A stretch of 64,000 bases of DNA from NCBI GenBank assembly GCA_024672315.1, contig GCA_024672315.1_4714.1. The stretch is one strand, 5' to 3'. This stretch comes from a phage. Of this stretch, positions 20,183 to 43,151 are shown piece after piece. The position numbers and the translations under genes were made by a program. Each line of letters opens with the position of its first letter. Positions within the stretch are counted from its first letter, which is position 1. Under the pieces are notes generated by a model, which had not been told where the DNA came from, did not search any database, and saw only the letters and a program-made list of their open reading frames with translations.

Positions 20183-22813
20183 TTACAATTCAAAATCTTC
20201 ATCGATAACACGCTGGGTAAGCACTTTGTCGCTGAAGAACTCCACCTTGCGCTGATGGTATTTACGGTGCGCTTCGATAGAAGTACATACCAGATACCAG
20301 AACGTTGGCGTCATTCCTTCAAACTTCCCTTTCAGCTGACGCAGTCGTCCCAACACCTGAATGTTACCGGTTCGTGACCCCATCGCTAGCGTCATGAACG
20401 TCATCACCAAGTCAGGAAGGTCGATACCTGTACCTGCTGATTTCACGGTTGTAACGCTAATATCGTTATCCAGCAAGACCATGAAATCTTCTTCAGCAGT
20501 ATAAGGACCGATCTCTAACTCAGGAATACGCTCACTGAGATAGTGCGACAACGACTTACACATATCAACGGTTGCACAATACACCAGCATCTTCATGCCT
20601 TCCTGATACTGGTTCATGAAACCCTTGATAATAACGGTATAGATGAAGTTAAAGTACGCGAGTTTGAGTTGCTTGTTCTTCATGATAGACTGTTCGAATA
20701 TCGTGTGTGAATAAGCTCCGCCAAACCCTTTGTATCTGACTTTATCTGTACTGCGTAGTCGATATGTTACCGCATTTACCGCAATGTATTTCTTGTATTC
20801 GCCTTTCGCATAACGGGCTTCTTTCGGATACATCAAATACAACATCTGTTCGATAAACGGATCATCGGATACCGCTGTTGCCGACAGATAAATGATTTCC
20901 GGAATATTGGCGTAACACTTGACCTTAAACAAGAAATGCAATGCTTCGTGACACTCGTCATGAATCAGCAAACCTATGCCGGTCTTTTCCCAAAACTCAG
21001 CGGGATGGAAGGCATATGGTGCAACGCAATTATTCTTCTCGTAGTCCGCAATGTAACGTTGGAACATGTTCAAGGAGAACAATGCGATTTTGAAGTCGAG
21101 CTCACCTTGTTCAACCAAGGTTTGAAACTCCAACATACTGTAACGAGGAATGTCGGGATGCGGTGGATCCTCCTTAGCGTTCCCGCGTATCTCGATAACG
21201 TCCCCTGGTTCCATCCCGAAGAAGTTCAGCAGTGAGCTTCGCCAACCTGGCATGTATCTCGGCGACAGAATGATACCCGTCCGTACACCACGTCTAAACA
21301 CGATTTCCTGTGACATCGCGGTGTTATGCGTGACGATAAAGTCTTTCACCACAAACAACGCTGAAGGATCATCGATCGTAATGCAACGTGCATCCGCAAC
21401 ACGGGAAGGTTTAATTGACAGTACACGTAGCATACTTTCGAAGTATTGTCCGTCAACAGGACAGCGTTCCAGCTTCTTCGGAAGCGTAACGATTTCATGC
21501 GGACGTTTATACCGTATCGTAACCATGTACGCTAGCCGTCCCTTATGTCTCTCCCCCTTGTAGGTGTAATACGGTTGTTTAATACGTAGACGAGCATACC
21601 CACCAATCGAACGAACCAAGTAGATAACGTCATCTGAAAGCTGTTTGCTCGAAGTACAGAAAACAATAGATCCTCCCTTCTCCACCGTTCCGTCGGTATC
21701 GATAAGACCTGCGAGTATTTCGCAACGTTGTCTGTGTGACGCCATCATGTACTGTTTCGGAACAAACTTCTCCCAGGATCGTTTACCCATCAACCCCAAC
21801 TGATCAAGCGCTAATGCCGTCTCTGACCGCCCACCGTAATTGATTAACGTTGCGGCAGGCGTCTTCGTTACCGCATAGTCGTATTTCTCGCGGTACTGTA
21901 TTTCACAGTCATCCGGAAGACGACTTAACACCTTATTCAAGATGAAATCGTCAGGAGTTGTGATTATCGGGGATGTTGATAAATGACCATCCCCTAACAG
22001 AACACCAAGCACGTACGGATCAAGCGGTAGATCTGCATCAGGAGTATGCTCAGACTCACAGTACGGAATGTAAAGTCGTTTATTGGACAGCTCCAGGATA
22101 CGAATCATCTCAAGTGTATTGATAACCCGCATGGGATAAGGATTGTTTTTGTCCCATCCCCAGTTAGGTCTCATACATGCCCAGAGATGCTCGCCGCAGG
22201 CTTCAACACGGCGACCGTCAGCAAAGACAATCTCATAGAGCTGTTTTGCTTTATGGTCGAAGATATTGGTTACCTTCGTTGGTCGGCCATTAGCAGCCGT
22301 GATGGTATCACCTATCTTCAAATCGCCTAATTGACGCCATCCGCCAGGGACTTTTACGAGCGTGGTAAGCGGATTTGCTTTACCCGACCCCGTTTGAGCG
22401 GTGTTTAGGCTCATTCTGAAGGGGGTATCCTTACCCCCGTCCATGTACTCCAACCATTCTTGCTGATCTTCACGCCATGGAAACTTCCATTTCTTTACGA
22501 ACTCCACTTCTTTACCTGGCACCGGATCGTGATAAACGATTTCCAACCACTCTTTTCGTATCCCTCGGGAAAAGATAAAATCCAAAAACGATTTCAATTG
22601 TTCACGGAGTAAGTATACCTCGCTATAATCGCTTCTCGCTGCGGCATACGTGTTTATGGTATCGGTAACCATTCTCCGTGTACGAGGGTCACGCCGTTTC
22701 CTCAGATGCAAACAACGGTCTCGAAGGTAATGGCCGATAAGATGGGCAAATCGAAGTCCGTATCCGCTCAGCCTCATGCCATGCGAGAAGACGTCGATAC
22801 GAGCTAACTTCAT
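20183..22813 (-). CDS. SF2 helicase containing an intein (host protein plus intein)
   Basis: 876 aa; Walker A TGSGK is interrupted, followed after about 352 aa by T and later DExH motif LIHDECHEA and helicase C-domain motifs; ATGA overlap with the upstream beta-prime C gene. Confidence 0.75.
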   Translation of the reverse strand: MKLARIDVFSHGMRLSGYGLRFAHLIGHYLRDRCLHLRKRRDPRTRRMVTDTINTYAAARSDYSEVYLLREQLKSFLDFIFSRGIRKEWLEIVYHDPVPGKEVEFVKKWKFPWREDQQEWLEYMDGGKDTPFRMSLNTAQTGSGKANPLTTLVKVPGGWRQLGDLKIGDTITAANGRPTKVTNIFDHKAKQLYEIVFADGRRVEACGEHLWACMRPNWGWDKNNPYPMRVINTLEMIRILELSNKRLYIPYCESEHTPDADLPLDPYVLGVLLGDGHLSTSPIITTPDDFILNKVLSRLPDDCEIQYREKYDYAVTKTPAATLINYGGRSETALALDQLGLMGKRSWEKFVPKQYMMASHRQRCEILAGLIDTDGTVEKGGSIVFCTSSKQLSDDVIYLVRSIGGYARLRIKQPYYTYKGERHKGRLAYMVTIRYKRPHEIVTLPKKLERCPVDGQYFESMLRVLSIKPSRVADARCITIDDPSALFVVKDFIVTHNTAMSQEIVFRRGVRTGIILSPRYMPGWRSSLLNFFGMEPGDVIEIRGNAKEDPPHPDIPRYSMLEFQTLVEQGELDFKIALFSLNMFQRYIADYEKNNCVAPYAFHPAEFWEKTGIGLLIHDECHEALHFLFKVKCYANIPEIIYLSATAVSDDPFIEQMLYLMYPKEARYAKGEYKKYIAVNAVTYRLRSTDKVRYKGFGGAYSHTIFEQSIMKNKQLKLAYFNFIYTVIIKGFMNQYQEGMKMLVYCATVDMCKSLSHYLSERIPELEIGPYTAEEDFMVLLDNDISVTTVKSAGTGIDLPDLVMTFMTLAMGSRTGNIQVLGRLRQLKGKFEGMTPTFWYLVCTSIEAHRKYHQRKVEFFSDKVLTQRVIDEDFEL
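21323..22378 (-). mobile_element. intein with LAGLIDADG homing endonuclease domain
   Basis: About 352 codons between GSGK and T; Hint-like N-terminal block, two LAGLIDADG motifs (LLGDGHL, AGLIDTDGT), C-terminal VTHN followed by +1 Thr; first intein residue appears to be Ala. Confidence 0.7.
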
Positions 22814-24816
22814 AACGTGATTACATCCTCCGGTTTAGGTTCTTTACGCGGTAACAGCATGTAGTCGATCGGATGATCCGGCTTCATGGTTGGGATATAA
22901 CTGTTCGGGTTTTGGAACGCATCCAGCTGCTCTTGGTGAGCGAACTTCATACTCAAGGAGCGCATGTTCATGTTCTTCTTGAAGGTGCTGAAGTATCGTG
23001 TTGTTCCCTGTTTCGGCATGCGATAATCTTTCGTGTGTGGCGAACGAATCATGCTGGCGTAGAGAATAACATCGAGATGCGAAAGGTTCATTCGCAGACG
23101 CTGGGCACACAGACGATGCCAATAGTACAGCACGTTTGCAACTTCCTCCGGTGTTGCTTCGTCTTCCGAGAGGAATCCGGCACTGAAAGAACCTTTCCCG
23201 AATTTGAACTCACGTTCGATTTCTTTTGCGTACTCCATCATGTTTTTGTGGATTAACGGCATCTGGAATAACGTACGTGAATTGTCCCAATGTTTCAAGT
23301 CGAAAATCACAATCCCGTCAGACGTCACTTCCCAGCTATGGCGTTTGAGATAACGGATAAACGCTTTACTCGGTACAACAGGACGGCCGCAGAAATCGAA
23401 ATTGACTTTGAGTTTACGATAGCTTTCATCTTTCCTGTCGTAAATCTCCATATCGCAAAGCGTCATGTTAAACAGACGTTGCGGTATCAACGAACTGATT
23501 TCTTCCGCTTCCGCTACGTCGTACAACATGTTCGCAAGACCTAACTTCATCTTAATCAGCACATGTTTACCTTTCAGCTCACGTGCGAGTTTGATGTCGT
23601 TCATGTTCTGGCTGTAGCGAAGGATATGTTGATATTCCGGTGGGATTGGTGCTGTGGATACCGTTGACGAACCATCGTGGTGTTTGGTAGAAAGAATGTT
23701 CTGCGTTACCTGTTGCGAACAGGTACGCGCTGCACCGTCGCCGACATTATCAGTCAATGCGAAGTTATGACTTAATTCACCGTAACACGTCGTACATACC
23801 CCAGCAGGATCGGGATGATGACAATAGTTAACGGAGCGCATACGCACTGTGGTGCCGATCAATTCTTTCATGTGTGGCTGTATCGCTACCAACGAACCGT
23901 CATCACGAATAATGAATCGACCGTGGAAGCCACGCAGGTCAGTCTCATCACGGATTGGCATCGGGATGGTCTCTTTACTACCACAATCACCAGGATGGAG
24001 TCGTTGTACAACCGCTGTCGCTATCTGAAGTTCACGACCGAAATATTCAGACTTTTTAATCTGCTCTTTGTTGAACAGCAACGATTTCGCCGCAGAACGA
24101 CTTTCTTTCAAGCTGTCAGGAAGAGAGATCAAACCGGCTGCATACGACCGCATTACCGGATCGCGGAATATCTCGGAGTTAATATCGGTCAAGAATCCAC
24201 GCATCCCAATACACTGTAGCACCTGCCCAATCGAAACGTGTTCGGTTCTTACCGCACGTGCGATAGGGTTTGCATGTAACGTTTTATCGGTGCTCAGTAC
24301 CTTTGTCAGTTTCTTGTATGCGCTTTCGATACCTTCGCGGGTGGGTTCCGCTTCAGCGATGATTTTCTTAACTTCGGGGTGTACGGTAATCTGATAAAAA
24401 TCGTCCGCGCAAATCGTTGTTACGTATTCCTCCAACGCATACGTAAAGAAGTTATACACATTGTTAAACATATCGAACAGTGCTTTCCAGAGAACCTCAC
24501 GATTCTCTTGTGGATAAGCATACATGCATTGACGATACGCGGCGCTTTGCAACGCAACCGATGAACCCGCTGTGAACTTGCGTTTATCAACCAGGTTCTC
24601 TTTTGTCAATGGTGTCTCAGGATACATGCGATGCACAGACCAGTGCATGTAACTAAAGAAAATGCGTCGTGCACGCAATTCATGAACGCCATCGTCCATC
24701 TCGATATACACACGGTCATTAGGTTGTGCCCACTCGAACACCTCATCAACCGGCCAATGCATAAGCTCGCGTGCCCTCACACGACGTTTCGTGGTGGTTG
24801 TCTGTGTTGTAATCAT
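22810..24816 (-). CDS. multisubunit RNA polymerase beta-prime-like subunit, C-terminal fragment
   Basis: 668 aa; VRMRSVNYCHHPDPAGVCTTCYGE...VGDGAARTCSQQVTQNILSTKHHDG aligns with E. coli beta-prime [21 protein letters not shown]...[25 protein letters not shown] (trigger-loop region) as recalled. Confidence 0.7.
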   Translation of the reverse strand: MITTQTTTTKRRVRARELMHWPVDEVFEWAQPNDRVYIEMDDGVHELRARRIFFSYMHWSVHRMYPETPLTKENLVDKRKFTAGSSVALQSAAYRQCMYAYPQENREVLWKALFDMFNNVYNFFTYALEEYVTTICADDFYQITVHPEVKKIIAEAEPTREGIESAYKKLTKVLSTDKTLHANPIARAVRTEHVSIGQVLQCIGMRGFLTDINSEIFRDPVMRSYAAGLISLPDSLKESRSAAKSLLFNKEQIKKSEYFGRELQIATAVVQRLHPGDCGSKETIPMPIRDETDLRGFHGRFIIRDDGSLVAIQPHMKELIGTTVRMRSVNYCHHPDPAGVCTTCYGELSHNFALTDNVGDGAARTCSQQVTQNILSTKHHDGSSTVSTAPIPPEYQHILRYSQNMNDIKLARELKGKHVLIKMKLGLANMLYDVAEAEEISSLIPQRLFNMTLCDMEIYDRKDESYRKLKVNFDFCGRPVVPSKAFIRYLKRHSWEVTSDGIVIFDLKHWDNSRTLFQMPLIHKNMMEYAKEIEREFKFGKGSFSAGFLSEDEATPEEVANVLYYWHRLCAQRLRMNLSHLDVILYASMIRSPHTKDYRMPKQGTTRYFSTFKKNMNMRSLSMKFAHQEQLDAFQNPNSYIPTMKPDHPIDYMLLPRKEPKPEDVITL

Positions 24817-24961
24817 TATTACTTTCCGATTTAAATGGTTTTATCATACGGTTTACCAATTCCGTTGGAATTTACTATCGCCATGATAGCATCGGGAATC
24901 CCTTCTCTTAGGTTATGTAGGTGTTAATATATCTCCACTGCCGGAGTAAAAGTCGGCAACA

Positions 24962-25447
24962 TTACCCGGCTTTCTGTCGTAGAGCGTACGGATCCATAGC
25001 GTCTGACATATCCGAAACAACCGTGAGAATGAAGCCCTTTATCTGTCTCACTTCGGTCACACGCAATCCTTTATCGTTACGATATACGTTTTCTTCACCA
25101 ACCAACTTTGGTCGGATAACATAAACGCCATCAACAAACGGGAATGTCGAATACGGATAAACACCAATAGAAATGATGTTTGGATGATCGCCTCGAAGGT
25201 CACGTCCGAACTTATCGACTCGACCATAAATCGTTCCATCCGCACCCTCCACTTCAATGAGGTCGTTACGAATATCCTGAAATAGCTGTTCTAAGGTGTT
25301 GGCAGGGTACGTATATGCGACGCCTAACGCTGGATCCTCGATCGTTTTGACATTGAATCCGTTAAGCCAAACAATCCGTTCATTCGCCCATGTTTCTTCA
25401 TATACCGTTAATCCATCGCCGTATATGTTGGCGTGTGCTATCTCCAT
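24962..25447 (-). CDS. hypothetical protein
   Basis: 161-aa ORF. Confidence 0.4.
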   Translation of the reverse strand: MEIAHANIYGDGLTVYEETWANERIVWLNGFNVKTIEDPALGVAYTYPANTLEQLFQDIRNDLIEVEGADGTIYGRVDKFGRDLRGDHPNIISIGVYPYSTFPFVDGVYVIRPKLVGEENVYRNDKGLRVTEVRQIKGFILTVVSDMSDAMDPYALRQKAG

Positions 25448-25604
25448 AATCTCATTTCCTCTTCTACGTAGAAATAGATGACATGTTGGATATACGTTGC
25501 CTTTGCATATATTGCTTTATTTCCGTCAGAAATAACGGAAAATAAAAACAACAACATAGTTCCCTCCCACCTCCACATGGGAGAGGGAGGGCTATACGTG
25601 TTTA

Positions 25605-25967
25605 TTACTCGATGCTGTCTTCTTCCGTATCTTCCTCTTCAGAACCATCGAATGTTTTCATTGTGGCGGTGGTATCCCAGTTAGCTGCGTAATCAGCCAT
25701 CGCTTCGCGCAGTGCTTCTTCACCAGCATCACCAGCCAGGTCAAGTACAACCAAACCCTGTGCGACGTTTTGAGCGACGGTATCAATAACGGTTGCATCT
25801 TCTTCAAAACTACGTACGGGTTCAATGGTACCTACATCAACAGCGTAGTTCGTGGTTGCTGTAAACACGGCGACTTGTAGCGCATTGCTATCTTCATCAT
25901 GCAGTGCTGCCTCAATACCGATTGGACGAGCCAGTTCTTGCAGTGTTAATTTGCGAATTAAGTTCAT
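25605..25967 (-). CDS. hypothetical acidic protein
   Basis: 120-aa ORF with strongly acidic C-terminus. Confidence 0.4.
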   Translation of the reverse strand: MNLIRKLTLQELARPIGIEAALHDEDSNALQVAVFTATTNYAVDVGTIEPVRSFEEDATVIDTVAQNVAQGLVVLDLAGDAGEEALREAMADYAANWDTTATMKTFDGSEEEDTEEDSIE

Positions 25968-26000
25968 TATGTTTTTCCTCAGGTGAATGTTAGCAATCGT

Positions 26001-26348
26001 TTAAAACTTTAAAACTTTTTCGATACGATGGTTGACGAATTCATTGAACGACTCTTCGGCTTGTTCGATAATTTCATCAACATCGATATCTAATTGTTGG
26101 GGTTGGATAACATGCTCTTTCATGGTTTCCAGCCAGTATTCGGCTTTAACCATAACGTTAGCGACGTGTTCGACCTGGCTGCGTATGTCGACGATCTGGC
26201 AATCAGGATTGTTAATATCGATGATGTGTCCGTGGTGTTTGATAAACCCTAACTTATTCGACGCCCTTACCGCATCGCGGGCAAGGTCTTGCAAGATTAA
26301 ATTATTGACGTAGTTCACTGCTATGGAACGATTTTCTTTATCACTCAT
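26001..26348 (-). CDS. hypothetical protein
   Basis: 115-aa ORF. Confidence 0.4.
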   Translation of the reverse strand: MSDKENRSIAVNYVNNLILQDLARDAVRASNKLGFIKHHGHIIDINNPDCQIVDIRSQVEHVANVMVKAEYWLETMKEHVIQPQQLDIDVDEIIEQAEESFNEFVNHRIEKVLKF

Positions 26349-26467
26349 ACCAGGGATCCTCTTTTAAGTGTTCACATTCTAGTGTTAAGCAGTTAAAATA
26401 AACCGTCCCTTTAATCAGCATAAACATCCTCCTCCCACCACATGGGCAGGAGGAGGCGTAATATGCA

Positions 26468-26878
26468 TCAGAAAGGAGGACGATCTTTAAATTCTAGCAA
26501 TGTATCTTCGAAGCAAGCGATAAGTTCAGACTGCAATTCGGTACGGCCTTGTTCACCGAAGAGTTCCAGCAACATTAACCCCCGAGCGGTCTTCGTAGCA
26601 ACCTCTTCGCAGATGCGGAGATCGCGAACTTCATCATCGCCGACATCTTTACGTAACTGCGCTGCAATGGGCTTAAGATTGCCGTTTTCATCGTGTTCGT
26701 CACGAAATGCATCATAAGCCGCATCGATGTTCGCGATCCGTGTCAATCCTTCAGAATCCCGCCAGTCTCGATATAATCCAAGCAGACGGTTATGATTCTT
26801 CGTTTTGACGTTCGGTGCTGGAAGGTTGCGCAACAGATGTGGTGTAATCATTGCTATCACGCTATCCGAATGATCCAT
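26468..26878 (-). CDS. hypothetical protein
   Basis: 136-aa ORF. Confidence 0.4.
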   Translation of the reverse strand: MDHSDSVIAMITPHLLRNLPAPNVKTKNHNRLLGLYRDWRDSEGLTRIANIDAAYDAFRDEHDENGNLKPIAAQLRKDVGDDEVRDLRICEEVATKTARGLMLLELFGEQGRTELQSELIACFEDTLLEFKDRPPF

Positions 26879-26889
26879 CGTATACCTCG

Positions 26890-29058
26890 TTAGCTTTCGC
26901 AGTCATCTGCGTCGATGATTTGTCCGCCAGCAACGTTCAGCTGATGATACAGGATCCTCAACGCACGGTTGCCGCCAATGGGATACTTCTCGAAGTTGGT
27001 CGCAATAGGAATCGCTGACGGCTTATCGGTCGCATAGATGCTTTCAGTGATGCTATCCACCTGTTTTGGATTGTTCGCATAGTCCATAAAGACGCTTGCG
27101 AACCATCCGCCAGCAAAGGCGGTAACTTCGCGATGTTCAGATTCACCACAGTAACGAGTCGGTTGCTCTTTACCAGGGGAACTGTATTTATCGCTATTAC
27201 TGAGTTTCGACGGTAATCCGTGCGCTTGCAGTTTAGGAATACCCACAGCTGACCAGTCGTTCGCCGTCTTCTCCAACATCATGATGTACGTGTCACCGAT
27301 CGCAATATCGTTCTTGGTTGTCCGCCATTGCCCGGAACGCCCACGATACCGTACAGGACCTTTCTTCAACGGGAACTCACGAATCAGATTCTCCATACGT
27401 TCTGAACCTGCTGCGATACTGTCCGTCGGGATATAAACTTCCGTACCGTGGCGTTGTACGTACCGTAAATGATCCCATTTATCCTCATCCGTGATACAGT
27501 ATTTTTCAACAACCTGTTCCACGAACTCAGGACTGACGATATAGTAGTAGCGCATCAGTGTGTTCCAAGCGGTCTCCAGATCGCCTGCATCCATCACCGG
27601 TTTCAGTTCACGCATGATCTGATCACCAACACCGTTGATGTATGGCGCATTAACACGACTCAAACTCATCCTTTTGATTACCGTGCTATCGTCGAACATA
27701 AAGTCCGCAACATTACCCCATTGGTCAACCGGCATTTCATCGTCTTCCATGATGTCGGTTACGACGAATTTATCACCCGCCATACCGGTGAATTTAAACC
27801 CGATACCTGGAACAACGTCGTACGTGTAGGTGATGGTCACACGCCAATCATCGAGATTCTCTTTGCGGTAATCGCGGGTTGGTAACACATGACGTAGCTG
27901 TCCGTTCGGATTGCGGATATCGATACCGTGTTCAGCATCAGCCAGGTTCAACCACCACATCACCGTTTGATGATGACGTATCGGCGTACCAACGCGTTCA
28001 CGTTCGTACTTACGAACAGCATCCTGAATTCGGGTGTAAAGCAAACCGATTGCGTTTTCATATTTCAGGAATTGACGATACGGAGGACGCATCTTCTCTT
28101 CCATCATAATCGCACGCTCGCGGGCTTGACGTCCAGAACGACGATGTCGATCGCTGACAACATCGATATCCGTTACACGCGCATTCGGTTCAGCGTAAGT
28201 GAGATCATCGTAAACATAATCCACACGCTGAAGGTTACATGTCATCATGTCAACAACGCTAAGAATAGGATCGATTTCGCGTGTTGCTGCAAGTAACCCA
28301 TCTTTACGAATACGCTCACCGTTCTCGGGTATTGCTTGATATACCTCGTCATCACCGTAGAGATTGATTGGGTATCGTGATTTACCTGACGTGATTGTTC
28401 GCTTCTCAATACCTGTGCTGGTGAAATGCTTCAATACACCACGACGGGCAACACCACCATCCTCGATACACTGATAGAAGCTACCGAAACACACTTTGCA
28501 ATCGCGACCGTAACCCCACTCGCGTGTTTCTTGATTGATCGCTGGGCTTTCCATCAAACGAGAATATCGCGGTACGATCTGGCCTCGACGGAGGGAATGG
28601 AACAAGTTGGTTGGTCGAAAACGGAAACCGTACTGCTGATGCATGATGTGATGCTCAGGCACTTCAAGCAAGCGTAGCTCGTGACGGTTACCATCCTCTT
28701 GGTTTTCATACAGCACGTAATGCATCGTGTTTGTTTTGATGCTGTTTGCTGTATGCCCCGGTTGGAAACGTGGGATGATATCTATGATGCGAGATTCGAC
28801 TGGAAACTCTACTGACCACGTGTTCTGTCCGTACTGGTATTCGATCCCCGTCGTCAGTCGGGACGGTTTCGCATCTTTGATAACCAACGCTTGGCTAAGA
28901 TGTCCACCAAACATCGCAGCGCGCTGTGCTGAGTTATAATGCAGTAGCCCGTTAAGTCCAGTCCCTACGCCAGTATACTCCTGTTTAATGGGAATGATTT
29001 TACCTTCAGCGATTGCCTGCTTCACAGATTCATAAAGAGGTTTTTCTTTATAATGCAT
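26890..29058 (-). CDS. multisubunit RNA polymerase beta-like subunit, C-terminal fragment
   Basis: YNSAQRAAMFGG resembles GANMQRQAVP; GDKFVVTDIMEDDEMPVD...SRVN resembles GNKGVVSKI..EDMPY..SRMN; GDTYIMMLEK resembles GYMYMLKL; CGESEHREVTAFAG resembles GGQRFGEMEVWALEAYG; start placed at ATG 29058 (SD AGGAAG) rather than track start 29223. Confidence 0.65.
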   Translation of the reverse strand: MHYKEKPLYESVKQAIAEGKIIPIKQEYTGVGTGLNGLLHYNSAQRAAMFGGHLSQALVIKDAKPSRLTTGIEYQYGQNTWSVEFPVESRIIDIIPRFQPGHTANSIKTNTMHYVLYENQEDGNRHELRLLEVPEHHIMHQQYGFRFRPTNLFHSLRRGQIVPRYSRLMESPAINQETREWGYGRDCKVCFGSFYQCIEDGGVARRGVLKHFTSTGIEKRTITSGKSRYPINLYGDDEVYQAIPENGERIRKDGLLAATREIDPILSVVDMMTCNLQRVDYVYDDLTYAEPNARVTDIDVVSDRHRRSGRQARERAIMMEEKMRPPYRQFLKYENAIGLLYTRIQDAVRKYERERVGTPIRHHQTVMWWLNLADAEHGIDIRNPNGQLRHVLPTRDYRKENLDDWRVTITYTYDVVPGIGFKFTGMAGDKFVVTDIMEDDEMPVDQWGNVADFMFDDSTVIKRMSLSRVNAPYINGVGDQIMRELKPVMDAGDLETAWNTLMRYYYIVSPEFVEQVVEKYCITDEDKWDHLRYVQRHGTEVYIPTDSIAAGSERMENLIREFPLKKGPVRYRGRSGQWRTTKNDIAIGDTYIMMLEKTANDWSAVGIPKLQAHGLPSKLSNSDKYSSPGKEQPTRYCGESEHREVTAFAGGWFASVFMDYANNPKQVDSITESIYATDKPSAIPIATNFEKYPIGGNRALRILYHQLNVAGGQIIDADDCES

Positions 29059-29077
29059 AGGACTTCCTATTATCGAA

Positions 29078-29443: not shown

Positions 29444-29448
29444 GATAA

Positions 29449-29477: not shown

Positions 29478-29508
29478 CATTTATGCCGTCGTTCGATGAC
29501 TTAATACA

Positions 29509-30789: not shown

Positions 30790-30844
30790 ATTGTATTTCC
30801 TTTTCTTTACGTCAACGGTCCCCCTACAACAGGGGACCTATGGA

Positions 30845-32432: not shown

Positions 32433-34019
32433 TTATTTTTTTCCTCTTAAATTTACTACGTGTTCATTTAATCGAACAACTAATTGCACAAGCTGCTGAC
32501 GGATATCTGCTGGACAAAGCATCAATCCTTTACGGTCAGCTGGGACTTTCTCAAGGATTTCCGGGCCTGCTGCTGAAACATCCCAGTCCCATTCACAAAA
32601 CGCATCGGCCACCATGTTAATACCGACAACCGGTAAAGTTGTACGTTCATCTTCATACATGGCGTGTGGATACAATTTATTGACAGTAATGATCTCCTGT
32701 GGTTTTAATTGGTGGATAATCTGATAAACATCGTCGCGTTTAACCTGGATACCTACGGTCAGCGCTGCCAGTTGAGGAAAACCCCAATGGTCTAATAAGC
32801 AAGCTGCAATCGCTAACGCTTTTGCTTGATGCACGGCTTCAATCGGTGCCAGACTTCTCGCCGGAAGATGGCTATCAAGCAACCATTGTGCCAGTGCTCG
32901 GCATCCACGGTTGATTGGTTTTAACTCAACGGTGTCATCATGTTTAGCGTACGTGTATCCGTCGTAACGTTTTGCGATACGCGCATACATGTCTTCAACT
33001 TTACCGTAAGGTGCTGTTTCGTCGACGTCGTGCAACACACGTTCCATCTGGGTGAGATACGCAATATCAAGAATGAGTACACGCGGTGAACGTTTATCTT
33101 TCACCATCAACGCATCAATCACGCCTTGACTGTCTTCATCTTGCGCGTTCCCTCGTGGGGTTTTCTCACGAATAGGTCCGCTGAAACGTCGTTCCGTACA
33201 AAGGTTATTCACATAGCTAAAGATCAGTGTTACCAGATGCGTACAACTCACCAACACCCCATCTTTAACGACAGGCTGTACGGCTTGGTCCAAGTCGCGT
33301 ACGGCTAGACGACGGACGATAGCTTGTGAACGCAACCAGCCTGGCACTTTCTCCGTCGACATGTAATCCACGGTCATCGACAGCGTGATCTTTTTATCAC
33401 CCGTCTGTGCGCGGATATAGTCTTCCAGTCGGTCGTAAGCAGCGATATCATGAATGCGTGTTTTATACATCAGTGACATAGCCACTTCTTCTTTACGGAC
33501 TGTCCCGTACGTTTTCCCTGCGTCAATCAGAAACTCTGCCCAAATCGGCACCATCAGACGGACGTAGATCGCTAACGCCGTTAACTCAACGTAATCATTT
33601 CGTAAATAGGTTTTCTCGGGTATATCATCCTCACCTAATGTTGTTTTCATGTCCGGCGGTAATTTTACCCAACCTGGGGTATTACACAATGCCAGAATCT
33701 CTTCATACACAACCGGTTTGTAAATTTCACCAACGGCGCGACTCAACTCCTCCATTTGTTGCTGTGGAGCAATGTAGTTATCCATCGCTTCACGTGCTTT
33801 AACGAACCCTTCGAAGATGTCGTCGATTCGACGTGGGTTCTTTTGTTCTATCCAGGCGAGATACTTGTTAATCTCCCGCATCTGATTGCTAGCCATATCC
33901 CCATCGATCTTGATGTAACCCTGACCTGAAAATTCCACGGTACGTCCATCACGGTGTTTGATGAGGTAGTGATCCAGCTTTTCTTTTCCTTGCGTCGTAA
34001 TGACGGGCACTATGTGCAT
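32433..34019 (-). CDS. hypothetical protein
   Basis: Track ORF runs to 34154 (573 aa); internal ATG at 34019 (MHIVPV...) with AAGAGG Shine-Dalgarno is the likelier start. Confidence 0.45.
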   Translation of the reverse strand: MHIVPVITTQGKEKLDHYLIKHRDGRTVEFSGQGYIKIDGDMASNQMREINKYLAWIEQKNPRRIDDIFEGFVKAREAMDNYIAPQQQMEELSRAVGEIYKPVVYEEILALCNTPGWVKLPPDMKTTLGEDDIPEKTYLRNDYVELTALAIYVRLMVPIWAEFLIDAGKTYGTVRKEEVAMSLMYKTRIHDIAAYDRLEDYIRAQTGDKKITLSMTVDYMSTEKVPGWLRSQAIVRRLAVRDLDQAVQPVVKDGVLVSCTHLVTLIFSYVNNLCTERRFSGPIREKTPRGNAQDEDSQGVIDALMVKDKRSPRVLILDIAYLTQMERVLHDVDETAPYGKVEDMYARIAKRYDGYTYAKHDDTVELKPINRGCRALAQWLLDSHLPARSLAPIEAVHQAKALAIAACLLDHWGFPQLAALTVGIQVKRDDVYQIIHQLKPQEIITVNKLYPHAMYEDERTTLPVVGINMVADAFCEWDWDVSAAGPEILEKVPADRKGLMLCPADIRQQLVQLVVRLNEHVVNLRGKK

Positions 34020-34223
34020 AACAACCTCTTTTCGCGGTTCCCTGTTAAAACGTCTTCTGTGACGTCTACCACAAAGGTAATATAAGCGTGAATAATTTTG
34101 GATTCCGGCTGAGTTATCGCTCAGCATGCAAGGCATCCCGCCGAAGCGAGACACCTTGCACTAACGGAAAATATTCGCGTTACCTTCTGAATCGAAGACT
34201 CAGAATGCGATGCTAAAGCATGA

Positions 34224-35012: not shown

Positions 35013-35085
35013 TTTCAGCCTCGTTACGTAGTGTGAATCAATTTCTGGTTCAGATGATAGTCAATATTAGTTAAAAATTACAGCC

Positions 35086-37045: not shown

Positions 37046-37827
37046 CAGAATTCCTCTAAATTGCTGCTGCTAATAGTCCCCGTCGTAGACGGCATGTTTC
37101 TACTACCCACCGACGCTGTTGTTGAAGAGGTTCTGGCTAGATTCAATCCGTTTAATAAACCACGCTCTTTTACCGTACGACGTGAACCATCACGAACGTC
37201 GTAAAGGGGTACGTTATAATGGTCAAAAATCCGAAGCCATTGCACGTAATCAGCAACAACATGGTCTTTGCTTTCATTCGGGGCAAAGCGATCAAGCTGA
37301 TGGTCGACGTAAGCTTTAGCGCTTTCAGGATTGAAGTTATACTGTCGGCGTGCTTTGTCCACCATCGCGAGGAAACATGTATTGGGGTCACGATTGATAT
37401 ATGAACGCGTCCGGATAAAGATAGCCGGTACCGTAAACAGAACCTTGTTGTTATTCCCGTCAGCAACGATGTTAACCGCACGATGTGGTTGGCCTGCTAT
37501 CTTGCACCAATCGTGAACAATGGTGCTATTACTCAACATCTCCGCGTATTCAGGATCCTGCGAAAACATTCCTGCGAACGGGTACAAGAAATGTTTAACG
37601 AACAGCGATTCGGGCAGGATGTTGGGACGCGTCATCTCCTGTAAACCTTTTCGTAGAAGCTCGCTGTTGTCTACCAGCTCCTGCCACATATCCGGTCGTG
37701 TTTTCGGGATGGACGGGTCCTGAGCACGACGAATGCGTTCTTCTTCATTTACAACCACTACCCCAGCCGGATACCCCAATAAATCCGTTCCTTCGCTAAC
37801 GTTGCTGTTAGTTTGGCGCGCCTTCAT
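37045..37827 (-). CDS. hypothetical protein
   Basis: 260-aa ORF. Confidence 0.4.
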   Translation of the reverse strand: MKARQTNSNVSEGTDLLGYPAGVVVVNEEERIRRAQDPSIPKTRPDMWQELVDNSELLRKGLQEMTRPNILPESLFVKHFLYPFAGMFSQDPEYAEMLSNSTIVHDWCKIAGQPHRAVNIVADGNNNKVLFTVPAIFIRTRSYINRDPNTCFLAMVDKARRQYNFNPESAKAYVDHQLDRFAPNESKDHVVADYVQWLRIFDHYNVPLYDVRDGSRRTVKERGLLNGLNLARTSSTTASVGSRNMPSTTGTISSSNLEEF

Positions 37828-38215
37828 TTACTTCCTCCTGCCACTTGATAAAATTACCACGCTCGGATCGCAGAACACCACCCAGATCGTACGATATACC
37901 TTTCTCTGTGACAATCCCTCCAATCTGGAGATCGACACGTTCCGTCGTCGGATCGATATACTTGACACGGACTTTCAATTCCACGCGATCGTAATAACGC
38001 ATTAAATAATCATACAACATCCGGTATGTCGCATCTTCCAATTTGGGTGCGCTATACTGCGATGTTGCAATGAGGTACGGTAGTGAAACGATGGAACCTT
38101 GATAGCAATACGACTGGGAATAATTCGATATTGCGAAATTGGTCATTAACCCATCCAACTTTTTACCCGATGCGGTTAAAAAGCTCGACAGTCCCGGTAA
38201 CGGATTCGATGCCAT
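37808..38215 (-). CDS. hypothetical protein
   Basis: 135-aa ORF. Confidence 0.4.
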   Translation of the reverse strand: MASNPLPGLSSFLTASGKKLDGLMTNFAISNYSQSYCYQGSIVSLPYLIATSQYSAPKLEDATYRMLYDYLMRYYDRVELKVRVKYIDPTTERVDLQIGGIVTEKGISYDLGGVLRSERGNFIKWQEEVNEGAPN

Positions 38216-38228
38216 GAGGAACTCCTCT

Positions 38229-38702
38229 TTAAGCGTAATTCATTCCAACCAATCTATCGTAGTTAGGCATATGCCCTAACTCCAGTTCGACAGGCATGGA
38301 TACATTGGTGCGTGGTGCGTAAAATGTTCGCGTATGCATATCGATATACCCACAGTCCAAATAAACAATATCGGACAACTCCGACGGATGTTTAGGCGCG
38401 GGAATCTTTAATCGATTATAACACTCAAGCTGCCACCAAGCATGAAAAAAGTTATTGTAGGCGTACGATTTACTGTTGGCAACTTTAAGTCCGTAGATCA
38501 CCCATAACGCCGCCATGAAGTTGGTTGCGTTAATTCGCATCGGTTGTTCATTATTGAGCATGTACGTGTAGGTAAACAACGGTGTGTTACCGTCACCAAA
38601 ACGTCCGACTAAGGTATTGTTCGTGTGTTCGACCTCAAAGGAAAAATGCTGGCTGCTATTGCCATCAAAATGGATCATTCCGTTCTCCTCAAGCTTTTTC
38701 AT
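38229..38702 (-). CDS. hypothetical protein
   Basis: Track ORF starts with GTG inside a hairpin at 38768; first in-frame ATG at 38702 (MKKLEEN...) preferred. Confidence 0.4.
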   Translation of the reverse strand: MKKLEENGMIHFDGNSSQHFSFEVEHTNNTLVGRFGDGNTPLFTYTYMLNNEQPMRINATNFMAALWVIYGLKVANSKSYAYNNFFHAWWQLECYNRLKIPAPKHPSELSDIVYLDCGYIDMHTRTFYAPRTNVSMPVELELGHMPNYDRLVGMNYA

Positions 38703-38797
38703 TTCATAGAGTGGTGGAAATTCGTAGAAAGTTACAAAAATAAAAAAGAATGGGTAGCCCCTCCCCACCCGAAGGTAGGGAGAGACCGCAAATATAT

Positions 38798-39283
38798 TTA
38801 AACCAAAGCTGCGATAACGTCGTTAACATTGCGGCCTCGCAACTCTGCCGCTAAACGAATAACTTCATCCAGGGAACGGTTTGTACGAATCTTGGCCACT
38901 TTCCAATTTTCAGGATACTGTTCGAAGTTAAGCAACCAAGTCATTACCTTTGCTTGTTCCATACCGTTGAGTTTAATTGTCGTGCGCGGATTGGCTTTGA
39001 ACCACTTCTTGCTCAGCTGCGCCATACGGCGAACAGGGTAAGCGTAAGCGCGAGTCCAGTCTTTGGACAGATTGTCGAGTAATTCACAGTAGCTGTTGTC
39101 GTAGTCTTTGTTGATACGACGTAATAACCAGTTGGCGGTCATCTGATAAAGTTTATCATCTTCACGTAACCGCATACCTGCTACTGCTAAATAAATGATA
39201 AGACCTGCGCCCAGGATGAGAGACAGGATGAACAGAATTTGGGTTTCTTGTGCTAAAGTCATTTTACTATCCTCGGATTTCAT
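38798..39283 (-). CDS. hypothetical membrane protein
   Basis: 161 aa; N-terminal hydrophobic helix LFILSLILGAGLIIYLAVAG; GAGGAT Shine-Dalgarno; directly downstream of promoter-like motif copy 2. Confidence 0.45.
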   Translation of the reverse strand: MKSEDSKMTLAQETQILFILSLILGAGLIIYLAVAGMRLREDDKLYQMTANWLLRRINKDYDNSYCELLDNLSKDWTRAYAYPVRRMAQLSKKWFKANPRTTIKLNGMEQAKVMTWLLNFEQYPENWKVAKIRTNRSLDEVIRLAAELRGRNVNDVIAALV

Positions 39284-39346
39284 TAGGATTTAATTTCCAA
39301 TATAAGGACAATGTGATATGCCTTATACAGTCGATTGATGTTGTAC

Positions 39347-39371
39347 ATCACCTAAGTAATATAGCCGTGAA
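39347..39371 (-). promoter_or_regulatory. conserved 25-nt promoter-like motif, copy 2
   Basis: Plus strand TCACCTAAGTAATATAGCCGTGAAA; about 70 nt upstream of minus-strand start 39283. Confidence 0.5.
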
Positions 39372-39381
39372 AAATAATGGA

Positions 39382-40179
39382 TTAACGTGTTCTCCTGTCA
39401 CGATGTGTATACGACTGAAGACCGATGTCCATATGCGGTAACGTCAGCGTCTGCCAGATCTGTCGTGCGTAGCGATCAAGCGTATAATCGTCAGTAACAC
39501 AATCGACGGGTTCGATGAGGTGAGTCGTATACTGGCTTTTCACAGAGAAAGGTTCGTTGTTAGCTGTATCTCCTAATCCGCTTTTCACCGTGAAGACAAG
39601 ACGTGTGACTATCATCGCCTTATGTTGCTGTTCATTGTAACGAAGGCTGCGGTATACGGCATAGCTTCCTCCTTTTAGGCTTCGGGTATAACGAAGGTCG
39701 GAGGTCGTCTCGGAAATCTGATACAGCATCCAGTCTAACGTATCTCGCCAGTACACATCATCCACATCAGGAACCGTGATACCGTACCGCGTAGGCAGCA
39801 ATTCTAAAAGCAATTTATAAAGACCGCGACGTAAGCCATGCTCTTCGGTTTCCGATAAACCGTTTCCAACGTAACGTGAAATACGTGTACGTAAATACGT
39901 ACGGATGAACATATTCGCCATCAGTGTTTTCACTCTGCTACTGGTATCCTCAAAGCGATCAACGCTGAAACTCGTTTCAATCAACCGTCCATTAAAATAC
40001 AATGCAGCAACATACATCGCATTATTGCTATCTCGTTCAATGTTTAAACGACCGCAGATATTGGCTGCGTCGTTCATGGTAAATTCTAATTTATCGTGTT
40101 CGATACGATAGATAATATCCTCCTGGGTTGCTAGGCTCGCAATGCGACGATAGCCCGGAGAAGTACGTTTTACACTCAT
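39382..40179 (-). CDS. hypothetical protein
   Basis: Track start 40218 coincides with the TATG of a TTTATGCCG element; ATG at 40179 with ACGAGGA Shine-Dalgarno preferred. Confidence 0.45.
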   Translation of the reverse strand: MSVKRTSPGYRRIASLATQEDIIYRIEHDKLEFTMNDAANICGRLNIERDSNNAMYVAALYFNGRLIETSFSVDRFEDTSSRVKTLMANMFIRTYLRTRISRYVGNGLSETEEHGLRRGLYKLLLELLPTRYGITVPDVDDVYWRDTLDWMLYQISETTSDLRYTRSLKGGSYAVYRSLRYNEQQHKAMIVTRLVFTVKSGLGDTANNEPFSVKSQYTTHLIEPVDCVTDDYTLDRYARQIWQTLTLPHMDIGLQSYTHRDRRTR

Positions 40180-40221
40180 GATTGTCCTCGTTTTCAATTT
40201 TAAGATTGCGTGCGGCATAAA

Positions 40222-40246
40222 CCCTCCCCGCCTTATGCAGGGAGGG
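40222..40246 (-). terminator. GC hairpin followed on the minus strand by TTTATGCCG
   Basis: CCCTCCC...GGGAGGG stem; minus-strand TTTATGCCG at 40213..40221. Confidence 0.5.
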
Positions 40247-40261
40247 TAGCCATTAAATGGA

Positions 40262-40900
40262 TTAACCTAATTTACCACCGGCGATATTGGTGAAATCTTC
40301 GCCATCAGGAACTTGCAGTAGGATACGTGCCATGTCCCAGTTGGTTAATGTGATTGCTTTATCATCGATACTCAGTTCTGGTAGGTCGAGTTCATGATCA
40401 TCAAACTCGTAGGAAATACTCCACGTTTCATCTGTTTTAGGATCGGTCATCAATACACCGTCTGTTACACGCATGTAGTCCGGATGCAGTTCATTACTGA
40501 ACGTACTGAACGGATCGGTGTAACATTCAGCATACCCCTCGATCTGCTGACGCTGTGCCTTCGTACGTAATTCAGGGCACGCCATGATCAGTTGTCGAGA
40601 TATACCGTTTGCCGCACGGAAGTCTTCCACGGTGATACATGGCATAACCACATCGTCATGGAAGATGTTCTCCGATTGTCTCAACAGCGTCTTACGGAGT
40701 TCAGCATAGTTTATCTGATTAAATGCGTCGAACGTTGCTAACGATTCAGCGTAAAAATGCTTTACGTGTTCGCTTGCGCCGCCGAGGCTATTCATCAGCT
40801 TGTGGCCGTACTCCATAAAGCTTTTATCGAGACCGGAGGACATTTCTCCGAACCTCAGTGCACGATAACTGTCTCGTCCACCTGTAAATATTTGCGCCAT
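40262..40900 (-). CDS. hypothetical protein
   Basis: 212-aa ORF. Confidence 0.45.
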   Translation of the reverse strand: MAQIFTGGRDSYRALRFGEMSSGLDKSFMEYGHKLMNSLGGASEHVKHFYAESLATFDAFNQINYAELRKTLLRQSENIFHDDVVMPCITVEDFRAANGISRQLIMACPELRTKAQRQQIEGYAECYTDPFSTFSNELHPDYMRVTDGVLMTDPKTDETWSISYEFDDHELDLPELSIDDKAITLTNWDMARILLQVPDGEDFTNIAGGKLG

Positions 40901-40915
40901 TACAGGCGTCCTCCT

Positions 40916-43151
40916 TTAGCAATGGTTGTTAGTTGCTTCTATTTCGTCAAGATACGGTTCTACGTCATCGCCCTCCACGAATTCGTTGAACCAACAGTCA
41001 ATGGTAGAAATAACCGGTGACTGGTGTTCACATTTCTTAGATACCTTAAAAGGTACGTTATTATCCATCATACCGAGTTCGGGTCGAAAACGCCCGAAAT
41101 GTTTCGCAGTCCAAATGTCTGGGACGATATGGTTGTTCATAGCGTCTCCGTCGCTGTTTATCGACTATATCTTCATCCTCATTGCGAGGAGTCTCCCGTT
41201 TGGGTCTGTGTTTAACAGAGCCTACTCTACTCGACGTCGCGTCTTTCGATAGTCTGTGAGCACACATCTTAACAAACATTCGTGGATTCCTAAACAGGTG
41301 AATGTTCTTGTTGAGATGCTTCGCTGCGGATTATTCCCGTCCTACCTCTTTTACCGTACCCAGTTCATTACGCTGGCCCTCATCTATGTCACCACGATGA
41401 GTTGGTGTGTAGTCCGATTACAGAAACTTCCCGTCAATTAGAGAGTTTTAACTACGTTCCTGTTACCAGAAACCAGATCCCGACGGTATCAATAAATCAA
41501 CGTAAGTTATTGATTTAATTGAAAAAACTGAAATCTGCATTATCTAAATCTTCAGTATGGTTCGCTACGCCATACCCGCACATACGTGCAACTTACGTCT
41601 TTCACGTAAGAAGAGACTATATCTTTCACCCTCAGCATTATCTGGTCGGGGCTCCCATTTCGGCGGTCATCTGACCGGTGGTTTCCCACGCCGCTTGGCC
41701 CTAACGCCCGTAAGCGATAGTCGTTGAGCGCATCTCCGTTCTGGAGACTTCGCTGCGGATTCCCCAATCCTTGCCGCTTTTACCATACCCGAATGATTAG
41801 TTCAGCCCCACGCGCTGTTCCCAGGCGTGGTTGGTGGACAAGGCTCTAAGTAGGTTCCCGCATTAGAGAGTTCCTCGTAACAACATTTCTGCGTTACTGG
41901 GCCTAACGACCCTTTCAAGATCATCACGCTTAACCCGATGGTGTTATCCTGCGGATCGCGTTTAACCTTGGTGATTTCAAGACATTGGTTACTGCTTCGG
42001 TCAAGTGATGGGTTTCGAACAAAGCCACACACAATCCCATCGAACGGTGTATCAGCAATAAGCTCATCATGCAGCTCGCTCATCATCGGATGATAATTAC
42101 GGACATGTTCCGCAACGAACGCACGTGCTGCTCTTGGTGAATAACCACGATGGAATAACTTGGATTGGATATGTTCTTTATTGGTTAAAGTAAATGGTGC
42201 GTATGGGAAATGCAGATGATAATAACGATGGTTCGCTGTTATCGAACTGATTACGGTACGCGTGGTAAATGGATGTAATGTACCTAATATGTTTTTACGT
42301 GTGATACCTTTCTTCTTACCGATGAACTCATCGAAAATCGCCGCATGGTATTGCAGCAGCTTCAATTGCACTTTCGCCATCCAGTTTTCTTTCTTTCTGG
42401 CGCTCAAAGGTGTTGTTGGATGATAGATACTGTTCAACGTACCGATAGCATCGATCGCACCTTCCATTTTGCTATCCGCATAACGACCGGTTGGCGTATT
42501 CTCGATAACGAACATCATGGCCGCAGGAAAGCTGATATACTGACTGAAGAACTTATCACGATGAATACGGATGAATTCTCGTAGCGTGTCAACTTTCTCC
42601 GTGTTCTTCGGTCCACGTAACGTCGGTCCTTTATACAAGATCTCCATGATGCGATCGAAGTTCTGTATAAAACTATTTACGCCACGTCGTATCCCGAATA
42701 CATCGAATTGCTGCTCCAGATAGTTCTTGAGTTCGATGGGTCGTTTTACATTTGGACGGTAACTGGCATCAATGAGCCACGTCATCGTTTCAAAGCTTTT
42801 GATATTCAACTCGCTTGCCAGCACGAGATGGACCAACGGGTTAATGAACGCATCGATTCCTTCAGGAACGCGCGCCCACACCGTCGAACGAATCTCCTGT
42901 TCTGCTGGGTAGGTTACAACCGTTTTACAGTTTGGACACACCGTGCCGAGCAGCTCACCACGATTGTAGAAACCACAACCACATTGTGGCGTGATATCCA
43001 ACGTATCGCTGGAGTAAACACGGGTGATAAAACTGTTTAATTTCTTCTTCTCTTCGACGACTTTTGTATCGTAATCGTTCAACAAAATCGGCGTAAAAGG
43101 AAGTTCTGCGAGCTGTCTATCGAAACTCACGATATCGAGCATGATGGCCAT
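40916..43151 (-). CDS. multisubunit RNA polymerase beta-prime-like subunit, N-terminal fragment, interrupted by two putative group I introns
   Basis: Exon 1 (43151..41879) has zinc-ribbon CGCGFY...CPNC and RNPSLDR resembling NRAPTLHR; proposed micro-exon 41543..41531; exon 3 (41153..40916) encodes DGDAMNNHIVP...LGMMDNN resembling DFDGDQMAVHVP...LMMSTNN; spliced length 1524 nt, in frame. Confidence 0.65.
41154..41530 (-). ncRNA. putative group I intron B (377 nt, no ORF)
   Basis: Minus-strand Q-like AATCCGCAGC (41332..41323), R-like GCTCACAGACTATCG (41261..41247), S-like GAAGATATAGTC (41174..41163); AAATC (41516..41512) complementary to exon end GATTT; ends in G; 5' region homologous to intron A. 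Confidence 0.6.
41544..41878 (-). ncRNA. putative group I intron A (335 nt, no ORF)
   Basis: Minus-strand Q-like AATCCGCAGC (41761..41752), R-like GCTCAACGACTATCG (41729..41715), S-like AAAGATATAGTC (41626..41615), GAAA-loop hairpin (41610..41592); starts after an exon U, ends in G. Confidence 0.6.

Follow-up and report, generated by a model that had tools for sequence, protein, structure and literature searches.

Non-virion RNA polymerase genes of a Goslar-like jumbo phage, with a β′-N subunit predicted to be spliced from three exons

The closest described counterpart of the genes considered here is the non-virion RNA polymerase (nvRNAP) of phage phiKZ, whose composition has been reported (PMC7598289). 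Besides split homologues of the bacterial β and β′ subunits it contains a fifth subunit, gp68, which was identified in the purified enzyme; the homologue of gp68 in the nvRNAP of Bacillus phage AR9, an enzyme whose function has also been described, confers promoter specificity (PMC7598289). In phage RAY, nvRNAP subunits localize to the phage nucleus (PMC10299810). The introns of the phiKZ RNA polymerase (RNAP) genes have been described (PMC11512511). RNAP genes of phiKZ-like phages are known to contain introns, which serve in interference between phages (PMC11512511; PMC11620839; PMC12908238), and two or three group I introns in a single phage gene are on record as well (PMC11878797). Here we analyzed a 64,000-nt stretch of phage DNA (GenBank assembly GCA_024672315.1, contig GCA_024672315.1_4714.1; hereafter the window, with features on its minus strand unless stated otherwise). 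An interval of this window very probably carries four of the five nvRNAP genes (β′-N, β′-C, β-C and a gp68-like gene) of a Goslar-like, nucleus-forming jumbo phage, with β′-N spliced from three exons. A preliminary description had recognized the first three genes as split β/β′ genes of a phiKZ-like jumbo phage, which is borne out by matches to the solved phiKZ enzyme (PDB 7OGP; E = 1e-59 to 1e-86), by PHROGs families and by the adjoining chimallin gene; the gene set was incomplete, since the gp68-like gene (32433..34019), within the interval described, and the introns had been missed.

The polymerase itself is already known: it is ordinary, annotated in Goslar and structurally solved in phiKZ, and finding it changes little, split nvRNAP genes being core genes of nucleus-forming jumbo phages. 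What is gained is a set of annotation corrections, namely the assignment to the non-virion enzyme, a fourth subunit gene and a β′-N gene of three exons, the last being the reason why the catalytic subunit comes out divided or truncated from gene callers and in the Goslar record. The sole point that may be new is an intron hot spot in the catalytic-loop codons of β′-N.

The RNA polymerase subunit genes and their setting

Because Pfam is too insensitive for these RNAP proteins, we used PHROGs and PDB sequence searches in its place. The β′-N, β′-C and β-C products all fell into PHROGs families named 'RNA polymerase beta subunit' (E = 2e-113 to 1.5e-180), and no profile search (PHROGs or Pfam) placed them in an unrelated family, Pfam giving a weak, sub-threshold RNAP match (Rpb2_6) and nothing contradictory. 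In the PDB, the nvRNAP of AR9 and then bacterial β and β′ followed as weaker matches, with E. coli β and β′ aligned in the expected regions.

All three genes first described proved to be real and to lie on the minus strand with the ends given to them, although β′-N is interrupted (see below). The β′-C gene (22810..24816; 668 aa), a homologue of phiKZ gp74, encodes a protein 99.7% identical to Goslar gp165 that matched PDB 7ogp_D (PHIKZ074) over aa 11–654 (E = 1.3e-86), with aa 195–390 aligned to E. coli β′ residues 733–947. It belongs to phrog_3015 (E = 5e-170), matched phiKZ gp74 in blastp at 3e-95 versus 0.002 for the virion RNAP (vRNAP) protein gp80, and carries the CxxC-YG motif noticed earlier as CTTCYG at aa 341. 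The β-C gene (26890..29058; 722 aa) corresponds to phiKZ gp71 plus gp73 and is 100% identical in protein sequence to Goslar gp171; its longest open reading frame (ORF) reaches 29223, and the start at 29058 agrees with the Goslar annotation. The product matched PDB 7ogp_C (gp71/73; E = 6e-86) and phrog_3295 (E = 1.5e-180), its aa 420–601 align to E. coli β residues 1063–1241, and phiKZ gp71 (5e-42) and gp73 (2e-39) match neighboring halves of it. The motifs first listed for β-C were found as NSAQRAA (aa 42), GDKFVV (aa 428), SRVN (aa 467) and EVTA (aa 644), except for EDMP, which does not occur as quoted, EDDEMP being read by eye near there. Near GDKFVV, at 27775..27735 (aa ~428–442), β-C is continuous in the window at the place where the gp72 insertion splits phiKZ β-C.

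The fourth gene (32433..34019; ATG at 34019; 528 aa) encodes a homologue of phiKZ gp68, the fifth nvRNAP subunit. Its product is 99.8% identical to Goslar gp175 and matches phiKZ gp68 over almost its full length (24% identity; BLASTP E = 5e-34, tblastn 2e-35).

Comparison with the phiKZ RNAP subunits, which the preliminary description had proposed as a check, favored the nvRNAP paralogues over those of the vRNAP. Using blastp and tblastn, the phiKZ nvRNAP subunits matched at 4e-65 (gp55), 3e-95 (gp74), 5e-42 (gp71) and 2e-39 (gp73), and nvRNAP paralogues overall scored 1e-32 to 3e-95 versus 0.002 or worse for vRNAP gp80, gp149, gp178 and gp180. In tblastn against the window, these four vRNAP proteins gave no match at E <0.5. 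The best matches are thus nvRNAP chains while the vRNAP subunits remain unmatched, which points to the non-virion enzyme. Gene order agrees with this assignment: the phiKZ annotation runs from gp54 (chimallin) through gp55/gp56 (HNH)/gp56.1, later gp65 (SbcD-like), gp66, gp67, gp68, gp69 and gp70, to gp71/gp72/gp73, gp74 and the helicase gp75, and tblastn placed every gene of this gp54–gp75 list on the minus strand of the window with the order kept.

Whole-window alignment over 64 kb showed the window to be collinear with positions 127,729–191,757 of Escherichia phage vB_EcoM_Goslar (NC_048170) at 95–97% nucleotide identity, with three indels in total: 1,049 extra bases in the window at 21327..22375, 17 nt at 41141..41157 where Goslar has 1,435 nt, and 367 nt at 41544..41910 where Goslar has 2 nt. 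When positions 40000–44000 were compared to phage genomes by megablast, Goslar was the sole match (97% identity). The Goslar record labels gp165, gp171 and gp247 'RNA polymerase beta subunit', the adjoining gene 'nuclear shell protein' and gp175 hypothetical; protein identity to gp165, gp171, gp175 and gp247 is 99.7–100%. The chimallin (nuclear shell protein) gene lies directly upstream of β′-N at 43244..45139 (Pfam PF25677, Chimallin_Phikzvirus, E = 4e-28, above cut-off); it is context and not an RNAP subunit, placed before β′-N as gp54 is before gp55 in phiKZ. PhuZ and terminase are annotated in the Goslar stretch that is collinear with the window. The chimallin gene and the gene blocks collinear with Goslar place the window in Chimalliviridae, Goslarvirus, the genus of Goslar, which is a nucleus-forming jumbo phage that encodes chimallin.

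Exons and group I introns of β′-N

The span 40916..43151 had been taken for a single β′-N ORF with a zinc ribbon and a catalytic loop, and this reading was refuted. The frame opened at 43151 meets a stop at 41802, the following 660 nt contain stops in all frames, and a 74-codon ORF (41140..40916) lies downstream of this stop-filled stretch. The zinc ribbon stands (CGCG..CPNC, aa 57–75), but the catalytic loop occurs in no single frame and needs intron removal, 'NADF' and 'DGD' being in different frames ~380 nt apart.

Three exons and two introns account for the span (insertion points are marked ↓). Exon 1 (41909..43151; 1,243 nt, or 414 codons plus 1 nt) ends in ..GLSVMILKG plus T and matches PDB 7ogp_A (PHIKZ055/056.1; E = 1.5e-59) and phrog_2987 (E = 2e-113); its end was set by Goslar, where exon 1 sequence continues directly as mini-exon sequence and the exon holds AAAGGTTATAATGCCGACTT contiguously. 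Intron 1 (41544..41908; 365 nt, no ORF) is inserted at GGG T↓AT, between Gly and Tyr codons, and is followed by a 13-nt mini-exon, ATAATGCAGATTT (41531..41543), whose codons (T)AT AAT GCA GAT TT(C) read Y-N-A-D-F. Intron 2 (41154..41530; 377 nt, no ORF) is inserted at TT↓C GAC, inside NADF↓DGD. Exon 3 (40916..41153; 238 nt, stop codon included) starts C GAC GGA GAC GCT ATG.. (..DGDAMNNHIVPD..), covers phrog_2987 positions 426–475 and matches phiKZ gp56.1 (E = 4e-5).

Joining the three exons yields a 1,494-nt frame of 497 aa with no internal stop, whose product reads ..LKGYNADFDGDAMNN.., that is, ..GLSVMILKG-YNADF-DGDAMNNHIVPD... NADFDGD occupies aa 416–422, in the spliced protein only, and β′-N ends 75 aa further on; with β′-C aligned to E. 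coli β′ residues 733–947, this puts the β′ split behind the double-psi β-barrel. Since NADF and DGD are joined only by removal of the introns, the Mg-binding loop exists only in the spliced mRNA. A provisional spliced β′-N, with a 16-residue placeholder insert at the junction, aligned to residues 41–495 of 7ogp_A (E = 2.7e-68); the solved phiKZ protein reads ..LKAPNADFDGDQLN.., its loop being LKAPNADFDGD. The predicted junctions in the spliced mRNA are AAAGGGT↓ATAATGCAGATTT↓CGACGGAGAC, and the predicted tryptic peptide across the junctions is GYNADFDGDAMNNHIVPDIWTAK.

The intron boundaries were set by comparison with 19 related sequences, genomes and contigs, in which an intron is either there or precisely missing. 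Intron 1 is exactly absent from Goslar, L007 and several other relatives, and intron 2 from L007, L021 and L027 (L numbers denote sequences in our collection). Both match the group I model Rfam RF00028 over its full length: intron 1 at 41929..41593 with 30.8 bits (E = 1.2e-5 locally, 5.5e-4 for the whole window) and intron 2 at 41521..41154 with 47.8 bits (E = 1e-10), the 3′ end of the latter coinciding with the predicted terminal G at 41154. In an E-value scan these two were the only Rfam matches in 64 kb; at gathering thresholds the window gave none, and the introns surface in E-value mode only. The Goslar counterpart of intron 2, labeled Intron_gpI in its record, scores 46.9 bits. Intron 2 is an ORF-less form of this Goslar intron, which carries the HNH endonuclease gp186, and is 96.8% identical to its core. 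For intron 1 the phage database held no close relative, just core matches of 60–120 nt to other phage introns.

Guide pairings could be drawn for each intron. Both are preceded by T (U), end in G and contain no ORF >75 codons. Intron 1 forms P1 (GGGU/GCCC, 4 bp) and P10 (UAAUG/CGUUA, 5 bp). Intron 2 has an internal guide, 5′-CCGUCG-GGAUCUG-3′ (41486..41474), with adjacent P10 and P1 segments: P10 pairs CGACGG/CCGUCG (6 bp) with the 3′ exon and P1 pairs CAGAUUU/GGAUCUG (7 bp) with the 5′ exon, with U.G at the splice site. In Goslar the exon reads CCGACUU and the guide GAGUCGG, so two synonymous exon changes relative to the window are matched by compensatory guide changes, as would be expected for co-conversion tracts or homing-site variation. 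The P1 helices from the comparative boundaries and guide pairings are other than Rfam's own, which we rejected (a hairpin in the intron 2 leader, and one across the exon 1/intron 1 border) because the splice sites they imply would leave stop codons or delete LKG. On these features the β′-N interruptions are predicted to be self-splicing group I introns.

Two side observations concern the intron borders. Across 41895..41921 plus 41531..41543, compared with Goslar (L001, 22948..22975), there are five synonymous differences in 27 nt (CTC>TTG, GGT>GGG, GCC>GCA and GAC>GAT), far exceeding the background divergence of 3–5%. The last ~48 nt of intron 1 (41544..41591; ..GCGGGTATGGCGTAGCGAACCATACTGAAGAT..) are 90–94% identical to the 3′ end of an otherwise unrelated intron in L007 (site b, below) and a similarity to the phiKZ gp55 intron at its 3′ end (L003, phiKZ 50480–50545) is visible by eye; this pattern suggests modular exchange of intron 3′ ends.

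An intron mosaic in the catalytic-loop codons

To compare these sites across relatives, we assembled 19 related sequences comprising Goslar, two IMG/VR contigs, six sequences with the exact exon 1 ORF and ten with the exact chimallin, and solved for each the segments whose removal restores VMILKGYNADFDGDAMNN. A solution was found for all 19 relatives and for the window, the joined exons giving VMILKGYNADFDGDAMNN in every case. Introns occupy four sites within ~26 nt: a (GGN T↓AT, between Gly and Tyr), b (GCT↓GAC, NA↓D), c (TT↓C GAC, NADF↓DGD) and d (GCN↓ATG, DGDA↓M). Each site is empty in some relatives, and the sites are filled in six combinations: a alone (two sequences), c alone (two), a+c (the window and six others, one with an HNH gene in c), c+d (five, three with HNH), a+c+d (three) and b+d (one). 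Of the 17 site-c introns, the window's included, 4 contain an HNH gene. The three a+c+d sequences (L008, L014 and L028) have two 13-nt mini-exons, and L007 has two related introns 18 nt apart.

The introns form three sequence families, one at site a, one at site c and one at sites d and b, so that a single family sits at different sites in different genomes, separated by mini-exons of 13–18 nt. Chimallin is identical to that of the window in 16 of the 19 relatives (set L006–L008 and L014–L029) and ~97% identical in Goslar and the two IMG/VR contigs; among phages this similar, the introns assort almost freely. None of the 19 relatives has an intron-less allele, and a degenerate-pattern scan of IMG/VR for an intron-less Goslar-type allele found none. 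In phiKZ the intron sits at another position, AAT↓GCT (N↓A), with a group I core of 75.6 bits. With this fifth site included, we lean, by a modest measure, towards regarding the codons K-G-Y-N-A-D-F-D-G-D-A-M of chimalliviruses as a group I intron hot spot that has not been described before. No description of the multi-site arrangement was found in the literature searched, coverage of which was incomplete, and the Goslar genome paper is silent on introns and RNA polymerase.

If the hot spot is real, it would offer a natural setting in which to study how introns compete and home and how an essential gene is spliced across an exon of 13 nt, and a link to the intron-mediated interference of jumbo phages that infect one cell together is possible. 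The mosaic supplies many natural alleles with and without introns at sites separated by a few nucleotides, in an E. coli phage that is tractable, and could interest researchers of mobile introns and of phage–phage competition.

How firmly the four genes and the spliced β′-N can be accepted depends on the alternatives. Chimalliviruses carry both enzyme sets, each with split β/β′ homologues (PMC7598289), and β′-C is faintly similar to phiKZ vRNAP gp80 (E = 0.002), so the genes might encode the virion-packaged enzyme, which enters the cell along with the DNA and is responsible for early transcription. We consider this very improbable, given that the nvRNAP paralogue is best for every subunit by 30–90 orders of magnitude, that the vRNAP queries gp80, gp149, gp178 and gp180 had zero tblastn matches in the window, that a homologue of gp68, a subunit of the purified phiKZ nvRNAP (PMC7598289), is in the same cluster and that gene order is that of the phiKZ nvRNAP region gp54–gp75. 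Still less probable, and barely worth entertaining, is that an unrelated element has captured these ORFs as fragments of cellular rpoB/rpoC or from another viral RNAP lineage (crAss-like, or YonO-like single-subunit). The weak direct resemblance of the products to bacterial β and β′ (E = 1e-4 to 1e-2) would fit such an origin, but their closest relatives are all proteins of jumbo phages, the window is 95–97% identical to Goslar and has chimallin, with PhuZ and terminase annotated in the collinear Goslar stretch, and sigma-70-like promoters are unenriched (25 versus 31 expected).

It has also to be weighed whether β′-N is a disrupted pseudogene or a set of separate polypeptides, its insertions inert and the catalytic loop supplied otherwise. 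Gene callers and the Goslar record do annotate the pieces as separate coding sequences (CDSs; gp247 and gp185), both introns score under the Rfam gathering cut-off, and splicing of β′-N is a prediction from sequence. There is nonetheless very little room for this explanation: removing two segments at U↓..G boundaries restores a 497-aa frame with the invariant YNADFDGD and an end-to-end alignment to the solved phiKZ subunit; the frame is restored in all 19 relatives, whichever of the six intron combinations they have; guide sequences co-vary with synonymous exon changes; and the 13-nt piece is untranslatable on its own. Goslar, moreover, is a viable laboratory phage with a comparable two-intron gene (PMC10299810), and the solved phiKZ chain is a gp55–gp56.1 fusion, which makes it evident that expression of the homologous phiKZ gene spans the intervening sequence. 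Several results nevertheless weigh against four nvRNAP genes with a spliced β′-N. Searched on the ORFs, Pfam gave next to nothing (a zinc-ribbon match due to chance, and Rpb2_6 with a sub-threshold score of 16.5 bits); the 'non-virion' assignment stands on orthology and gene order; both introns fall short of the Rfam gathering score of 50 (47.8 and 30.8); the P1 helix of intron 1 has just 4 bp; and minimum-free-energy z-scores of the introns (−1.9 and −1.2) are unremarkable and uninformative. To these is added the fifth subunit gene, β-N (phiKZ gp123-like), for which tblastn found no match within the window. The β-N homologue of Goslar is at 39951–41621, ~86 kb outside the region equivalent to the window; the β-N gene presumably lies elsewhere in the genome, much as the preliminary description had supposed.

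Transcription scheme, other features and comparison with known systems

By analogy with work on phiKZ and AR9, the four subunits would be synthesized in the infected cell, their genes probably being transcribed from early promoters by the virion RNAP that comes in with the DNA, and would join β-N in a five-subunit enzyme without alpha and omega. In that enzyme the split β and β′ halves would rebuild the double-psi β-barrel active center, with the gp68-like protein as a sigma-like initiation subunit, and transcription of middle and late genes would take place in the chimallin shell, independent of host RNAP. Before the Mg-binding loop YNADFDGD is encoded, the β′-N mRNA would have to lose both ORF-less introns. 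Each intron has its own guide (P1 plus P10) and each is found alone in related phages; independent splicing is therefore expected.

Early-promoter-like motifs were found upstream of the gp68-like gene (TTCACGCTTATATTACCT, 34075..34092) and upstream of chimallin and β′-N (TTCAGGGTTATATTACCT, 45210..45227). Both are instances of an 18-nt motif, TTCASGSYTATATTACYT, present at 15020..15037, 34075..34092, 39354..39371 and 45210..45227 and followed by a G-rich GTG box. Four sites were found versus 0.05 expected for a pattern that was derived from the same sites; each is on the coding strand and falls outside the genes as delimited by the starts adopted here. By itself the 8-mer TATATTAC shows no enrichment (4 found versus 2.1 expected), just the extended 18-nt motif being enriched. 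We regard the TTCASGSYTATATTACYT sites as candidate early (vRNAP) promoters, fitting the AT-rich motifs reported for jumbo phages (PMC7598289). The sigma-70-like promoters of the window, at background level as noted above, and the TTCASGSYTATATTACYT sites are consistent with a host-independent scheme of nvRNAP transcription; a terminator scan was also at background level.

At least nine intergenic sites have a GC-rich hairpin (often CCCTCCC...GGGAGGG) directly followed by TTTATGC(C/T)G: on the minus strand near 52828, 48779, 40221, 26424, 13199 and 5256, and on the plus strand near 17295, 18870 and 29480. The Goslar record annotates hairpins of the CCCTCCC...GGGAGGG kind as terminators. The TATG beside the hairpins corresponds to the late-promoter core of phiKZ; alternatively, translation could begin at such sites, as at 40218, with the G-rich arm serving for ribosome binding and the ATG as start codon.

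The helicase gene adjoining β′-C (20183..22813), a homologue of phiKZ gp75, encodes 876 aa versus 524 aa in Goslar. It carries a 352-aa intein (insert ~21323..22378) in the Walker A motif (GSGK↓TAM), with a LAGLIDADG homing-endonuclease domain (Pfam LAGLIDADG_3, E = 3e-6); the intein begins with Ala, not Cys or Ser, and ends ..THN↓T. No intein is present in the 524-aa helicase of Goslar or of five other relatives whose β′-C is identical; overall, at least 427 blocks of the sequence index contain this identical β′-C.

Among described phages, Goslar has the same gene set and order as the window, with proteins 99.7–100% identical (gp165, gp171, gp175 and gp247+gp185) and DNA 95–97% identical. It differs in lacking the intron at G↓Y, in an NADF↓DGD intron that holds the HNH endonuclease gp186 inside a 14-bp P9 stem near its 3′ end, whereas that of the window has no ORF, and in a further 355-nt intron at DGDA↓M, absent from the window, that follows its own 13-nt mini-exon, CGACGGTGACGCT. 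This further intron has a weak Rfam score (16.7 bits) and is unannotated in the Goslar record. The RefSeq entry has one Intron_gpI (L001, 21157..21511) and separate CDSs gp247 and gp185; neither mini-exon CGACGGTGACGCT nor the second intron, which lies past the HNH gene, is recorded, so that the entry mis-annotates the catalytic subunit. The helicase intein likewise separates the window from Goslar.

The phiKZ nvRNAP (gp55/56.1, gp74, gp71/73, gp123 and gp68; PDB 7OGP) has four of its five subunits in the window, with full-length alignments at only 24–32% protein identity. Common to both are the β/β′ split points, the neighboring chimallin, the gene order and a group I intron in the catalytic-loop codons of β′-N. 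However, phiKZ has one intron, at N↓A, carrying the HNH gene gp56, compared with two ORF-less introns at G↓Y and F↓D in the window, and its β-C is interrupted by gp72 between gp71 and gp73, unlike the continuous β-C found here. The AR9 nvRNAP (PDB 7S00/7S01) resembles that of the window in its split β/β′ and its gp68-like promoter-specificity subunit, and is a detectable homologue of β′-N, β′-C and β-C (E = 1e-7 to 2e-17), although far more distant. The genome of AR9 is made of uracil-DNA and lacks chimallin, and its promoter logic should not be transferred to the window phage. Mobile group I introns at codons for catalytic residues of essential polymerase genes are also found in PhiPA3 gp210 and at phiKZ gp56, gp72 and gp179 (PMC11620839; PMC11512511), and multi-intron phage genes comparable to β′-N include Twort orf142 and the DNA polymerase gene of Bastillevirinae (PMC11878797). 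Compared with all of these, the two introns of the window stand apart in that both are without an endonuclease gene and are separated by an exon of just 13 nt.

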